Shown piece by piece: positions 2,312 through 13,171 of a stretch of DNA of 64,000 nt; position 1 is the stretch's first letter, and every line of letters starts with the position of its first letter. The DNA is from an uncultured Thermococci archaeon (GTDB taxonomy: Archaea; Methanobacteriota_B; Thermococci; Methanofastidiosales; B48-G16), in contig CAZQQT010000002.1 of NCBI GenBank assembly GCA_964595645.1, positions 128,001-192,000 of the forward strand, read 5' to 3'. A program made the translations under genes and the position numbers. The notes under the pieces are model-generated. The model was given only the letters and a program-made list of their open reading frames with translations, did not search any database and was not told the DNA's origin.

Positions 2312-3384
2312 TTTAAATCCTCCAGTACTTCTTTTACAGTTTCTTGTGGGACGTCGTTCCGCATGGCCACCGTACCTATCTCCTCAGGAAGTACGAATGT
2401 GATGTGATTCCGTTGTGTCTTTTTATCGTACTGCATCCTCTCAAGAACAGCACTCGTACTGACTTCGGGGAGCGTTGTGGGGAGTCCGGTCTGGACGATA
2501 AGTTCTTCTTGCCGGTGTACAGCCTCGGTGTAGAGAATTCCCATTTTTTCTGCAATCCGTGCGGCGGCACACATTCCTATTGCCACAGCTCCTCCATGAG
2601 ATAGTGTAAAATTGGTAACAGCTTCAAGTGCATGCCCCACTGTGTGTCCATAGTTCAGTATCTTTCGCACTCCAATCTCCCTTTTATCCTTCTCCACAAC
2701 ACCGATCTTTATCCTACAACATTTTTCTATGATATCTTCCAGCGGAGGAGAAAGAAGAAGGTTTTCTCTACTTTCTTCAAGCGTCTCAAAGAGAGAAGCA
2801 TCTCTGATCATTGCATATTTTATTATCTCTGCAACACCATTTTTCATCTCCTCTTCAGGAAGCGTGGAAAGTACCTCTGTATCTATAAGGACGAGCTCCG
2901 GATCTTTGAATGCGCCGATGATATTTTTCGCATGTGTGTAGTTTACCCCTGTTTTTCCACCGATGCAGCTGTCTACTTGAGCGAGAAGAGTAGTGGGAAG
3001 ATGAATGAGCGGGAGACCTCTTAGATAGGTGGCGGCCACAAAACCTGCAAGATCTCCCACTACTCCCCCACCCAACGCGATTATAGGCGTGAATCTCTCT
3101 ATTCTGTGCTGTAGGAGCTCTTCGTAGATCATCGATGCCATTTCCAACGATTTGCTTTTTTCAGTGTCAGGAATTTCAAGCACCGTTAGCTCGAATTCCT
3201 CATTCAGTAAACTTTTCTTCACGGTCTCTCCATGCAGCTCATTGATCGTTTTATTTGTCACAATTACTGCTTTGGAAGAGTACCCTCTTTTTTTCAGCAT
3301 TGGCCCGATGGTGGAGAGGATCCCACGATCTATAAAGATCCCATAGTTGTTCTGAGGGTGATGGACAGTCAGCTTCCGTCTCAT
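2308..3384 (-). CDS. aroB: 3-dehydroquinate synthase
   Basis: [50 protein letters not shown]. Confidence 0.97.
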
Positions 3385-4430
3385 ATATCTATCATCCTCT
3401 TAAGCTGATGCATCATCTCTGCGAATTGATCGGTTGTGAGCGATTGGTTTCCATCACATAGCGCATCAGCGGGTCTGTTGTGTACCTCTACCATGACACC
3501 ATCTGCACCTGCCGCAATAGCGGCCTTTACCAGAGGGATTACAGCACTCCGTTTCCCCGTGGCATGACTCGGGTCAATGATTACGGGGAGGTGGGTGAGT
3601 TCATTGAGTACAGGAACAGCACTGATATCCAGGGTATTTCTTGTTGCAGTCTCAAATGTCTTGATTCCCCGTTCACAAAGTACCACATTCGGGTTTCCTT
3701 GCGACATAATATACTCTGTTGCAAAAAGGAGATCTTTGATCGTGGCATTCATACTTCGTTTTAGGAATATGGGTTTGGACTGTTTTCCTACTTCCTTGAG
3801 GAGGGAGAAATTCTGCATGTTCCTGGCTCCGATCTGTAACATATCGGAGTATTTCTCTACCAAAGGCACATCCCGTGTGTCCATCACCTCTGTGACGATA
3901 GGGAGTCCTGTTTCTTCCCGTGCCTTTTCGAGAAGTTTTAATCCCAGTTCACCCAACCCCTGAAAGGAGTAGGGGGATGTTCGCGGCTTGAATGCGCCGC
4001 CGCGGAGAATTGATGCTCCCTCTTTCTTTACTCGGTGTGCGGTCTCCAGTAACTGCTCTTTGGTCTCAACACTGCAGGGACCGGCAATGACTACTGGTTT
4101 TTCACCTATAGCTATTCCGCCTACATCTATTACCGTCTTTTTGTCTTTAAACTCCCTTCCAGCCAGAATATATCGTTGGGGGGAAAATATCACTTCTTTT
4201 ACTTCCTGCAGCTGTGATATTTTTTTCACGTCGGAAATATTTTTTGCTACAACCACCGGAGCCGAAAACTCTACCGAAAAGACATCAGAACAGGTTTTTT
4301 TCAGCTGTTCCTCTATCTTAGATCGTTGCAATTTCGATAGATTTTTCTTCAGTACAACTGCGTACAATCCCCTGCTTTCTTTTCTCTCCAACTTAATTGT
4401 TTTTAGAGAAGGATGACCAATCGAACTCAT
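3381..4430 (-). CDS. aroF: DAHP synthase type I-beta with N-terminal ACT-like segment; start uncertain (AUG 4430 preferred, has GGAGG SD)
   Basis: [39 protein letters not shown] motifs. Confidence 0.93.
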
Positions 4431-4518
4431 AGTCATCTCCTCCACAATCTACACAGGCCACCTCATCCTGTCCATTGTCGTTTTCACTATTTTCGTTTCC
4501 TTCACTTTTACATTTCAT
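4393..4518 (-). CDS. Leader peptide of the aro operon, 41 aa: [41 protein letters not shown]
   Basis: Manual translation; AGGTGG SD upstream; lies just downstream of BRE/TATA; aromatic codons only at Y30, F32, W34, F37; paralogous to the pheA leader. Confidence 0.8.
4407..4443 (-). promoter_or_regulatory. Hairpin sequestering the DAHPS SD and start region
   Basis: GGAGG-A-GAUGACUA pairs with UGGUCAUC-CUUCU (13 bp including G-U pairs, one bulged A). Confidence 0.7.
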
Positions 4519-4553
4519 TTATTCCACCTTTCCCCTGATATAGACATGCATGC

Positions 4554-4570
4554 ATTTAAAAGGTTTTTGG
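4554..4570 (-). promoter_or_regulatory. BRE/TATA promoter of the aro operon
   Basis: Minus strand CCAAAAACCTTTTAAAT, about 35 nt upstream of the leader ATG; nearly identical to the pheA promoter. Confidence 0.75.
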
Positions 4571-4640
4571 TGCATTTTTATGTACATGTAGTAGTTCATT
4601 GACTATGTAGATCAATATTCATCAAATTTTCGGACACAGA

Positions 4641-5411
4641 CTAAAGATTTTTTCTTAGCGTTTCGATAAAGGTTACCATCTCACTATAGCTTTTTTTCGT
4701 GACTATATCTCTAAAATTTTCTAGCTGAGTAGTAATTTTCTCAATTTCTGCAAGCGAGTAGGGAGCAAAGAGTATTTCAGCAAGAAGATGGTTATCTTCC
4801 TCTAACAGTTTTCGTGCTACTTCCTGATGTCTTGTGAATGTTGTTCCTGGAACAGCTTTCTCCGGGAGACAGGCAGCAAAAATCAGGGAACAAATAAAAG
4901 GAAGCGCAAGCGAGTCTGCCATGAGGCTATCATGTTCATCGAAGGAACATTCGTATATATGGACACCACGAGTGAGAAAGAACCTCTTAAAAAACTGTTT
5001 GGCTGCAGTATCAGATTCTTCTATAATGATAACATTCTCTTCTTTCAAATCATCAAATGTAGTGAATCTGGGACCGAACATTGGATGGATCGAGGCATAC
5101 CTGTTTCCACACTCTTGGTAGTACAACGGCAGTTTTCCTTTAATGGAAGCAATATCCACAAGAATACAGGCCGATGGCAAGTATGGTGCAACTTCCTCAA
5201 AAACCTCGACGGTATGCTGCAGACTCACCGCATTTATCACCATTTCAGGGTCGAAGGATTTAACCTCTGCGATAGCATCGAGATGAGTAACTCCCTCTAC
5301 TGCCTCTCTTTTCTCTTTATCTTCATCGTAGATTGCTATCTCATGATTTTTTGAGAGCTCACGGGCCAGCCATGAGCCCATATTTCCAACACCTATCACC
5401 GCGATCCTCAT
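4641..5411 (-). CDS. tyrA: Prephenate dehydrogenase; true start MRIAVIG at 5411
   Basis: GVGNMG Rossmann motif, DIASIK, HPMFGP, EHD; ATGA overlap with the pheA stop. Confidence 0.92.
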   Translation of the reverse strand: MRIAVIGVGNMGSWLARELSKNHEIAIYDEDKEKREAVEGVTHLDAIAEVKSFDPEMVINAVSLQHTVEVFEEVAPYLPSACILVDIASIKGKLPLYYQECGNRYASIHPMFGPRFTTFDDLKEENVIIIEESDTAAKQFFKRFFLTRGVHIYECSFDEHDSLMADSLALPFICSLIFAACLPEKAVPGTTFTRHQEVARKLLEEDNHLLAEILFAPYSLAEIEKITTQLENFRDIVTKKSYSEMVTFIETLRKNL

Positions 5412-6463
5412 AGGATCGCCTCCGGGTAGCAGCCGAGGAATTTGTAGATTAGTGTTCGATCTTTCATCTCGCGAAGCATCTCTTTTATTCTCTCCTCTTC
5501 CACAGATCCCTGAAAATCGAGTAGAAACATGTAATGCCCGGGTCTTTCTTTTATAGGCCGGGATATTATTCGTGTGAGATTTATGTTTTTCTCGGTAAAT
5601 ATACGAAGCAGACGGTGGAGGGCACCGGGTTCGTGCTTTACTGAAACGACAATAGAACATTTTGTTCCCTTTCCACAGGGAGCAGAGGAGACAACCACGA
5701 ACCGGGTAAAATTCGAGGACACATCCCCGACGTTTCTTTTTATTATTTCGAGATTGTAACGTTCTGCACATAGTGTACTTGCGATAGCTGCAGTGGCAGG
5801 TGGGAAGGTATCTGCGATCATCCTAGCAGCACCAGCAGTATCGTAGTATGGAACTATCTCGATTCCAGTCTCCGTAAGAAAGCTCCTGCACTGTGCCAAT
5901 GCCTGCGGGTGAGAGTATACTTTTTTAATCTCGCTGAGTTCAGTGCTTGGTGGTGCGAGAAGAGCATGGTGGACAGGAAGCTGTATCTCTCCCACTATTG
6001 GAAGCTCATACGCTATTAGAAGATCCGTTACTTCTGTCACCGTTCCTTCGATTGAATTCTCAATAGGGACAATTCCCAGATCAAACCATCCATGCTCCAC
6101 CGCCTCGAATATTTCAGCAAAGGCTGTGCAGGGGATGGGCACCATTTTTTCGCTGTATCGTTTTGCAGCCATCTCCCCGTAAGCACCGTGTTCACCCTGA
6201 AATCCTATAAGTGCATGTTTTTCTCTCTGGAGTTTTTTACTTTCTGCAATTATTTTCTTAAAAATTTGTGAAGCAAACTCGTCATCTATCAGATCATGGC
6301 AGTACGTTTTAACAGTATTTATAACGCACTGTTCTCTCTTTTCATCAGTGATTTTCTCCTTCAGTTTCGTAGTCCGTAATGCCAGCTCCATTCGTTCGTT
6401 CAGCAGCGAGATAATTTCACGATCTATCCGGTTTATCTCCTCCCTTAGAAGTGTTAACTCCAT
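5408..6463 (-). CDS. pheA: Chorismate mutase / prephenate dehydratase (P-protein)
   Basis: LREEINRIDREII..LNER (CM), FQGEHGAY, PIENSIEG, SHPQALAQC, NFTRF, ACT domain NLTRIISRP. Confidence 0.96.
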   Translation of the reverse strand: MELTLLREEINRIDREIISLLNERMELALRTTKLKEKITDEKREQCVINTVKTYCHDLIDDEFASQIFKKIIAESKKLQREKHALIGFQGEHGAYGEMAAKRYSEKMVPIPCTAFAEIFEAVEHGWFDLGIVPIENSIEGTVTEVTDLLIAYELPIVGEIQLPVHHALLAPPSTELSEIKKVYSHPQALAQCRSFLTETGIEIVPYYDTAGAARMIADTFPPATAAIASTLCAERYNLEIIKRNVGDVSSNFTRFVVVSSAPCGKGTKCSIVVSVKHEPGALHRLLRIFTEKNINLTRIISRPIKERPGHYMFLLDFQGSVEEERIKEMLREMKDRTLIYKFLGCYPEAIL

Positions 6464-6573
6464 TCTTCCCCCCTCCAGAGAGATCCGTCCCTCTTTATCA
6501 CTGACACTCTCAGAAAAGTAATACTCTGTCCTTCACATTGATTCGTCCGGGAACGACTGGAAACAGAAGTCAT
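6454..6573 (-). CDS. Putative 39-aa relay uORF starting inside the pheA leader and ending over the pheA start
   Basis: GGAGGGAG SD then ACT-ATG at 6573; open to TAA within ATGGAGTTAA, a 10-nt overlap with pheA. Confidence 0.45.
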   Translation of the reverse strand: MTSVSSRSRTNQCEGQSITFLRVSVIKRDGSLWRGEEWS

Positions 6574-6649
6574 AGTCGCTCCCTCCGCTATCTCGGCAGC
6601 TTAACATATCATCTCCGCCATCCTCATTTTCTTGTTCTCCATTGTTCAT
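6533..6649 (-). CDS. Leader peptide of pheA-tyrA, 38 aa: MNNGEQENEDGGDDMLSCRDSGGSDYDFCFQSFPDESM
   Basis: Manual translation; AGGTAGGT SD-like site; just downstream of TATA; aromatic codons only at Y26, F28, F30, F33; paralogous to the aro leader. Confidence 0.8.
   Translation of the reverse strand: MNNGEQENEDGGDDMLSCRDSGGSDYDFCFQSFPDESM
6549..6583 (-). promoter_or_regulatory. Hairpin sequestering the internal SD/AUG in the pheA leader
   Basis: GGGAGCGACU pairs with AGUCGUUCCC (10 bp, one G-U). Confidence 0.7.
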
Positions 6650-6680
6650 GATACCTACCTAGACTCTCCTACACAGCTGT

Positions 6681-6696
6681 ATTTAAAAGGTTTTGG
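6681..6696 (-). promoter_or_regulatory. BRE/TATA promoter of pheA-tyrA
   Basis: Minus strand CCAAAACCTTTTAAAT, about 31 nt upstream of the leader ATG. Confidence 0.75.
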
Positions 6697-6827
6697 CACG
6701 CCAGATTTGATATGCAAGAGGCAAAAAATGTGTATGTTTTGAATCCATAAACCCTAAAAGGTATGTGTCTCTATGAGCAGGATTCCCAAAGAAAAACTTC
6801 TTTACTATCTTTTGGATACACTATTCA

Positions 6828-7607
6828 TCAGATATTCTTTGTAGGGAGACTCATTTCTTTGACGTAGGTCGTAACCTTCTCATAACTATGTGTTCTTCTT
6901 ACAATACCACTGCCAACGATTACTCCATCTGCTCCGAGATGAAGTATCTCTCGCACATGAGTGGGATGTGAGATCCCAAATCCTACACAGAGAGGAATGT
7001 CTGTGGCGGCCCGCATTCGTTTCATACATTCATGAACCTCTTGGGAAACTCTGTCCCTTTCACCGGTCACACCTAAAAGTGATACCACGTAAAGGAATCC
7101 TGTGGTAGCCTTTATAATCTTTTTAAGTCGTTTATTTGGGGTGATGGGAGATGCCAAAAATATATTTGCAAATTCATGCTCTCTTGAAAGTGTTATAAGC
7201 TCAGAAGCTTCTTCTGGTGGGAGATCAGCAGCTATCAATCCATCGGCCACCTCTGCGAAATCACTGATGAACTCGTTGATACCGTACTGCAGAATAATGT
7301 TGTAGTATGTCAAGAGTACAATAGGGATATCACGGTTCTTACGGGCCTTTTTTATTACTTTTAAGACCTTTTCCGGCGTTGTGTCGTTTTTTAGAGCTCT
7401 TTGTACTGAATTTTGTATTGTTTTTCCATCTGCTACCGGATCGGAGTGAGGAATACCCAGCTCTATAATATCTGCACCATTTTTTTCGAGAACTTCTATG
7501 AGTTTTACGGTATCTTCCAATGAAGGATCACCACAGGTGATATAGGGAATAAATGCTCTTTGATTTTTTTCCCGCAGTTTTTCGAACGTTGTATTAATGC
7601 TATTCAT
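6828..7607 (-). CDS. trpA: Tryptophan synthase alpha chain
   Basis: [40 protein letters not shown]. Confidence 0.97.
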
Positions 7608-13105: not shown

Positions 13106-13171
13106 TTAGAATCGCCACTCCTCTAATAAAGAGAGAAATTCCAGTGTTCCCAGTAGGGGCTTACTCTGCAT
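13106..13171 (-). CDS. Candidate leaderless trp leader peptide MQSKPLLGTLEFLSLLEEWRF
   Basis: ATG lies 29 nt from the first T of TTTATAAA, the expected TSS position; single Trp codon at position 19 of 21. Confidence 0.45.
   Translation of the reverse strand: MQSKPLLGTLEFLSLLEEWRF

Follow-up and report, generated by a model that had tools for sequence, protein, structure and literature searches.

Overlapping leader ORFs with a hidden start codon as probable aromatic amino-acid sensors upstream of the pheA-tyrA and aroF operons of an uncultured Thermococci archaeon

The pheL and trpL leaders of Escherichia coli (Rfam Phe_leader and Trp_leader) combine a short leader ORF, codons for the end product, and an RNA stem, with the ribosome as the inferred sensor. 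In translational attenuators such as ermC/cat-86, the mycobacterial poly-Cys leaders, and Bacillus subtilis rtpLP, the output is translation initiation. The Shine–Dalgarno (SD) sequence of these leaders is held in a stem whose other arm is leader-coding, and the sensor codons and anti-SD arm are located 5' of the SD, so that a stalled ribosome frees it. A conditionally slow A-site codon is also used by prfB, where an SD approximately 3 nt 5' of the P-site codon accompanies an autoregulatory +1 frameshift and a +1-frame product is made. Coupling between the coat and lysis genes of phages fr and MS2 and in termination-reinitiation pairs is constitutive and triggered by a true stop codon (PMC6728339, PMC10666635, PMC12548453); in fr, ribosomes back-scan over a 38-nt overlap (PMC6728339). 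The actinobacterial LEU element, which contains a pseudoknot, pairs leader codons with the SD of a biosynthetic gene; its Leu run lies 5' of the SD, and codon mutations gave no support for sensing (PMC1262725). In the literature searched, which included few subscription papers, neither a ribosome-mediated amino-acid attenuator in archaea nor a published report of a leader with an embedded start was found.

Two leaders of the latter layout are located in the window analyzed here, a 64,000-nt stretch (G000:C2:128001-192000) of a near-complete 1.97-Mb genome (G000), whose gene content points to the order Methanofastidiosales in the class Thermococci. On the minus strand, to which all features below belong, the gene order is the trp operon, pheA-tyrA, and aroF-aroB-aroD-aroE-aroK, and pheA-tyrA and aroF each possess a separate BRE/TATA-like promoter and a short leader ORF. 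pheA (chorismate mutase-prephenate dehydratase; 5408-6463) shares an ATGA overlap with tyrA (prephenate dehydrogenase-like, with a match below curated cut-offs; 4641-5411), and aroF (DAHP synthase; 3381-4430) leads its operon. Like pheL and trpL, these leaders have, judging from the sequence, an ORF with its own SD behind a promoter and carry cognate codons. In contrast to pheL and trpL, the cognate codons are few and form no run, no U-tract follows the stem, there is no terminator hairpin with an alternative antiterminator, Rfam gave no match in the sequence apart from tRNAs, the putative sensor codons overlap the start under control, and the element belongs to an archaeon. As in the ermC/cat type, the SD lies in a conserved stem with a leader-coding other arm; unlike in that type, the anti-SD arm and the putative sensors lie 3' of the SD, on the AUG, and the stall site is not far enough upstream for a second ribosome. 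The element thus appears to work like a leader-peptide attenuator and is filed under neither the transcriptional nor the SD-exposure type, because the defining geometry of both fails.

The pheA-tyrA leader begins with a promoter element at 6680-6696, similar elements being found 45-61 nt 5' of the leader ATG in 10/10 homologous leaders, and an SD-like site at 6653-6660. The leader ORF of 38 codons (6533-6649; open in 10/10 homologues) encodes an acidic, aromatic-free N-terminal part and then Tyr-x-Phe-x-Phe-x-x-Phe. A second SD is embedded, together with the 5' arm of a stem, in its Gly-Gly-Ser-Asp codons (6574-6586; duplex with the 16S tail, -10.8 kcal/mol; aligned spacing, 7 nt), and the Tyr codon UAU (6574-6572) bears an AUG in the +1 frame (6573-6571), the resulting UAUG (6571-6574) being present in 10/10 leaders. 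The loop (6559-6570) contains Phe codons at 6568-6566 (+5 from the AUG, conserved) and 6562-6560 (+11; Trp in the aro leaders), and the anti-SD 3' arm (6549-6558) includes a further Phe codon (6553-6551). Positions 6583-6574 pair with 6558-6549 to give 10 bp with one G-U pair, the SD starting at 6586. A stem hiding an SD and a +1 AUG on the leader Tyr codon, which the first-pass annotation had described here, is indeed present at these positions. Its minimum free energy is -20.9 kcal/mol (z -2.5), 6/200 shuffles fold equally well, and taken alone it exceeds chance only modestly. A small upstream hairpin also occurs within the leader ORF (6595-6619), as does one at 4453-4471 in the aro leader; comparable hairpins 5' of the SD are found in about half of the leaders, altered in sequence yet paired. 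The leader frame is also the pheA frame and stays open beyond the leader UGA into pheA with Tyr-Tyr-Phe codons (6533-6464), a read-through that is not conserved in homologues and is probably due to chance.

The paralogous aro leader, the top match in a genome-wide scan for this layout, comprises a BRE/TATA-like promoter (4553-4570), an ORF of 41 codons with Tyr-x-Phe-x-Trp (4393-4518), and a stem (4407-4443) that hides an SD and the aroF AUG (4430). The changes that had been noted between the two stems (U-A to C-G, A-U to G-U, and G-C to A-U) are correct, and the phe loop is one codon longer (17 vs 14 nt); the GAC/GUC core, which had been described as kept, is shared by these two stems, but not universally, since 2/10 homologues have a mismatch inside it. 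In the aro leaders, the embedded AUG is the sole conserved aroF start. A downstream TTG was rejected as the aroF start, as the codon varies between TTG, CTG, and CTC over five loci and its SD reaches only -0.3 to -4.2 kcal/mol. Initiation at the embedded AUG gives AroF of this clade an N-terminal extension of approximately 21 residues (4430-4367) ahead of the usual start. Over positions 4200-7000, the assembly shows 0 differences and 0 gaps against Logan contigs of the probable source run, which are not independent of it, and the agreement makes an assembly error in this region unlikely. An assembly frameshift at a G6 run 5' of pheA, which would fuse pheA to the relay ORF described below, was also discarded; source-like contigs agree with the assembly, one relative has a +3 change at this position, and the relay stop is present in 4/4 homologues.

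Protein and contig look-ups yielded 10 distinct leader copies from approximately 6-7 lineages, all 5' of aroF-type or pheA-tyrA operons. Six are of the aro type (G000, G001, L141, L142, L156, and L145) and four of the phe type (G000, L143, L144, and L145-148/157); G001 is a same-genus relative of G000 whose pheA leader falls in a contig break. The promoter, leader ATG, open leader frame, SD, UAUG, and anti-SD arm occur in all 10 leaders, the ORFs of which range from 29 to 42 codons, and a check for the stem in orthologous leaders found it in 4/4 pheA and 6/6 aro leaders. The element is therefore real and conserved. Outside this set, the covariance model gave no convincing match at approximately 50 more distant pheA loci (33-56% identity) or in 118 of a sample of 120 further genomes of the class, and two weak Thermococcus-type matches were judged not to be leaders. 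Since nothing further convincing was found by the model in 121 class genomes or the distant pheA loci, the family is narrow in current data. A pattern scan of GTDB returned only G001 and one chance coding match, and among 1.8 billion proteins searched with a profile, the only matches were two relay ORFs of the known type; P0132, which had wrongly been clustered with a leader, is an unrelated primase. A tree of the 10 leaders lacks resolution, and monophyly of the phe leaders is not rejected (p-AU 0.086). At L157:5049-7538, a truncated tyrA is joined to an inverted trpE-trpG-trpD block, likely through mis-assembly or rearrangement.

Other leader types appear to be used in the same order. A separate upstream-sensor element in the window, the trpE leader ORF (13106-13171), has 21 codons with one Trp two codons before the stop, and its W-R-x-stop end is common to G001, G007, and L157. 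The conserved frame starts at ATG-13171, its single Trp and W-R-x-stop being shared by four genomes from two or more families (with L159, L160, and L157), and an overlapping two-Trp frame (13176) is not conserved. In a Methanofastidiosum-like genus (L028, L029, and L030), a leader of 22 codons that closes with a Phe/Tyr run lies approximately 130 nt 5' of a chorismate mutase gene; with a long-range stem near the SD, it is a candidate upstream-sensor attenuator.

Selection on both the RNA structure and the reading frame had been proposed in the first-pass annotation, and comparison of the homologues agrees on both counts. Across nine sequences, 85/90 stem cells pair (94%), compared with 35-60% in slid controls, and four stem pairs show two-sided changes, two of which have G-U intermediates (U-A to C-G via U-G and A-U to G-C via G-U). 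The covariation score was reached by 2/500 shuffles, a significance inflated by kinship among the 9-10 sequences, and derived pair states are still canonical in 10/15 cases by a rough count (p ~0.01). The covariation is thus supportive and not of R-scape grade. Loops measure 11, 14, or 17 nt. All 10 leaders keep their own frame open, while the other frames usually contain stops. The suggestion that the GGxDY[DE] peptide motif partly reflects the embedded initiation signal also holds, as its GG-x-D-Y part is largely the SD plus the start signal, and an unrelated gene start in the same genome yields a similar GG-E-D-Y. The stem codons change amino acids freely, and therefore pairing, not the peptide, governs them.

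Relative to the AUG, the putative sensor codons are at -1, +5, and +11. Tyr, Phe, and Trp occur in 6/6 aro leaders and Trp in 0/4 phe leaders, so that the codon set fits the end products of the operon controlled. UAUG is invariant (10/10), the wobble positions around it vary, and the AUG is kept even where a codon is inserted before Tyr. Phe at +5 is found in 9/10 leaders with both Phe codons in use, and among the five aro leaders with a gap-free alignment, the loop varies in three columns, each a third position of the leader frame, even though AroF residues change; selection in the leader frame thus appears to act on the Phe and Trp codons 3' of the AUG, a point not raised previously. The aro cassette of L156 and the phe cassette of L144 are approximately 93% identical from the promoter through approximately 120 nt of aroF-like sequence, and their differences fall at 5/17 loop positions vs 17/307 elsewhere (Fisher p=0.003). 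The phe member of this pair has lost Trp but retains Tyr and Phe, the latter through a synonymous change. Aromatic codons make up 0/212 codons of the N-terminal leader parts, compared with 9.2% genome-wide, in a purine-rich region of kin that are not independent. Further Phe or Tyr codons are located at +17 to +35 in some leaders, while the L143 and L144 leaders contain one Tyr and one Phe each and no aromatic codon past +5.

The embedded SD pairs with the 16S tail of this genome at -9.4 to -12.6 kcal/mol (genome median, -7.4), and its aligned spacing is 7 in 9/10 leaders; spacings of 6-8 are found in 69% of the genes of this genome. In the phe leaders, the +1 AUG opens not pheA but a conserved relay ORF, which the first-pass annotation had not recognized. 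The relay of the window (6454-6573) has 39 codons and a stop that overlaps the pheA start by 10 nt, and homologous relays are found in 4/4 phe leaders; they encode 39, 52, 74, and 70 aa and overlap pheA by 10, 14, 10, and 10 nt, with the frame differing once. This overlap of 10-14 nt, combined in 4/4 cases with an intragenic SD of -10.2 to -13.4 kcal/mol, is a feature of termination-reinitiation and is slightly longer than the common -1/-4/-8 of such pairs. The 39-codon relay probably represents what is left of the 5' end of aroF. That of L144 encodes a shortened AroF N-terminus (37% identical to the AroF N-terminus), and for this reason pheA control most likely arose when the promoter and leader of aro were copied along with a stub of aroF, an event that may have occurred repeatedly. 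In L144:1-1755, leuD/leuB-like genes, not trpA, precede the phe cassette, which suggests that the cassette and pheA were moved or re-acquired in that lineage. At L145:2697-3005 (also in L146 and L147), an archaeal-type aro pathway replaces aroF, and an AroF-like stub of 68 codons is still initiated from the leader. The last 12 codons of this stub are rich in Phe, Tyr, and Trp; 3' of them come a hairpin that conceals a mini-ORF of 8 codons and then the real gene, an arrangement that could be a multi-step relay or a second sensor.

Based on this comparison, the leader is likely an aromatic amino-acid sensor, and an amino-acid-sensing translational switch at this site has a good chance of being correct. 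The full account, a ribosome-read amino-acid switch on translation initiation with restart and relay, is given a probability of about 0.45. When Tyr-, Phe-, and Trp-tRNA are plentiful, the ribosome would reach the leader stop and the stem would re-form behind it, closing the start. The distance from the 9-bp core to this stop is 13 nt in six leaders and 16-19 nt in four, so the terminating ribosome would have just cleared the stem; with a ribosome modelled at the stop, the SD-AUG closure retains 7-17 kcal/mol, which fits an OFF state under amino-acid abundance. When one of these tRNAs is short, the ribosome may stall where it has opened the stem. Its P site would then be 4 nt 5' of the AUG, or 2 or 8 nt 3' of it, and its 16S tail could reach the SD. 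The stalled ribosome may then lose its peptide, either because it is released prematurely or because Pelota/ABCE1 rescues it, and the same subunit may restart on the SD-anchored AUG. The AUG would start aroF directly, and in the phe leaders the relay ORF, from which translation would be handed over to pheA and then tyrA by termination-reinitiation. Pelota is encoded in the genome, and archaeal small subunits are thought to be able to remain bound via the SD. Release or rescue followed by restart is favoured because sensors at -1, +5, and +11 place the stalled ribosome over the start, barring a second ribosome, and because these offsets fall where termination-reinitiation works. A -8 overlap, equivalent to the +5 sensor, is common in Haloferax, and coupling drops steeply with distance (PMC10666635) and also with overlap; in vitro, initiator tRNA can restart a stalled 70S ribosome at a nearby SD-led start (PMC12548453). 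The literature searched offered no precedent for a ribosome restarting efficiently once stalled at a hungry codon, and release of the starved ribosome itself with restart on the AUG is put forward tentatively, at rather less than even odds. One to four aromatic codons would make a weak sensor compared with classical runs, and the sample consists of 10 related sequences from a narrow clade. The LEU element, in which a similar-looking pairing of codons with an SD is independent of the Leu codons, would by analogy count against sensing here.

The main rival is a starvation-induced +1 frameshift, in which the ribosome at a hungry Tyr (or Phe/Trp) codon would slip into the AroF or relay frame, aided by the SD as in prfB, to give a leader-fused protein, the stem serving only to block independent initiation. 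The SD lies 3-4 nt before a P-site Asp codon with Tyr in the A site (for the Tyr stall only), near the prfB geometry, with a conditionally slow codon and a +1-frame product as in prfB; this placement fits initiation spacing equally well. A slippery UUU-U precedes Tyr in one leader, the phe leader of L145. In contrast to prfB, the P-site codons before the sensors (Asp, Glu, and Ala) cannot re-pair in the +1 frame in 9/10 leaders, and an invariant AUG at initiation-type spacing, for which a frameshift has no need, is kept instead, even after the codon insertion before Tyr. Frameshifting is therefore considered unlikely.

Less probable still is constitutive coupling without sensing, in which leader ribosomes would open the stem or back-scan from the stop in the manner of fr/MS2 lysis and the aromatic codons would be by-products of the start signal and stem. 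The intragenic SD, the structure-hidden start, and the overlap of 35-47 nt resemble fr (-38) and MS2 (-50), the relay/pheA overlap of 10-14 nt resembles termination-reinitiation pairs, and the SD and AUG by themselves account for the Tyr codon and GG-x-D. However, the Phe codon maintained by synonymous changes in an unpaired loop, the Trp confined to the aro leaders, and the excess of L156/L144 changes in the loop are left unexplained, and the stem should refold before the ribosome gets to the stop. Here, moreover, aromatic sense codons occupy the efficient restart positions, in contrast to the true stops of those systems. Coupling without starvation is possible; since fr back-scans over a 38-nt overlap, as found in the aro leaders of G000, G001, and L141, similar back-scanning could give basal expression.

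About as improbable is TnaC-like nascent-peptide sensing or control of mRNA termination or decay, in which a free amino acid would arrest the ribosome at the leader stop and block restart, or a stall would alter FttA termination or cleavage. Tyr lies 11-15 codons before the stop, approximately a tunnel distance, and polarity has been reported in archaea (PMC12548453); however, the Tyr-to-stop distance and the C-terminal residues vary freely, no U-tract lies 3' of the stem, and a stall should raise polarity, not relieve it. Classical translational attenuation, by which a stalled ribosome would occupy the anti-SD arm and a second 30S subunit would initiate at the freed SD, is the least likely of the four: it follows the standard logic of ermC/cat and the mycobacterial poly-Cys leaders, and the extra codons past +17 would suit it, but if the ribosome is assumed to cover about -15 to +12 relative to the A site, the sensors at -1, +5, and +11 place the stalled ribosome on the SD or AUG, and L143 and L144 lack any aromatic codon past +5.

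The leader thus probably turns on aromatic amino-acid synthesis under starvation, and its geometry speaks against the textbook read-out of leader peptides. After duplication, the sensor codons appear to have been altered to suit the pathway, and the element gives unusually direct comparative evidence for an archaeal attenuator. With some reservation, the sense codons may be viewed as conditional stops, at which a starved ribosome is released or rescued on site and restarts on the overlapping, SD-held AUG, the cassette having been copied, with the aroF stub serving as its portable relay, and adjusted through loss of the Trp codon; the read-out itself could be new, with odds somewhat below even. 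If the restart is right, ribosome rescue or premature release would become a regulatory step, and these operons would offer a clean system for asking whether the same ribosome restarts in translational coupling. If true, the reading of sense codons as conditional stops would be a third leader-peptide read-out, beside termination and SD exposure.
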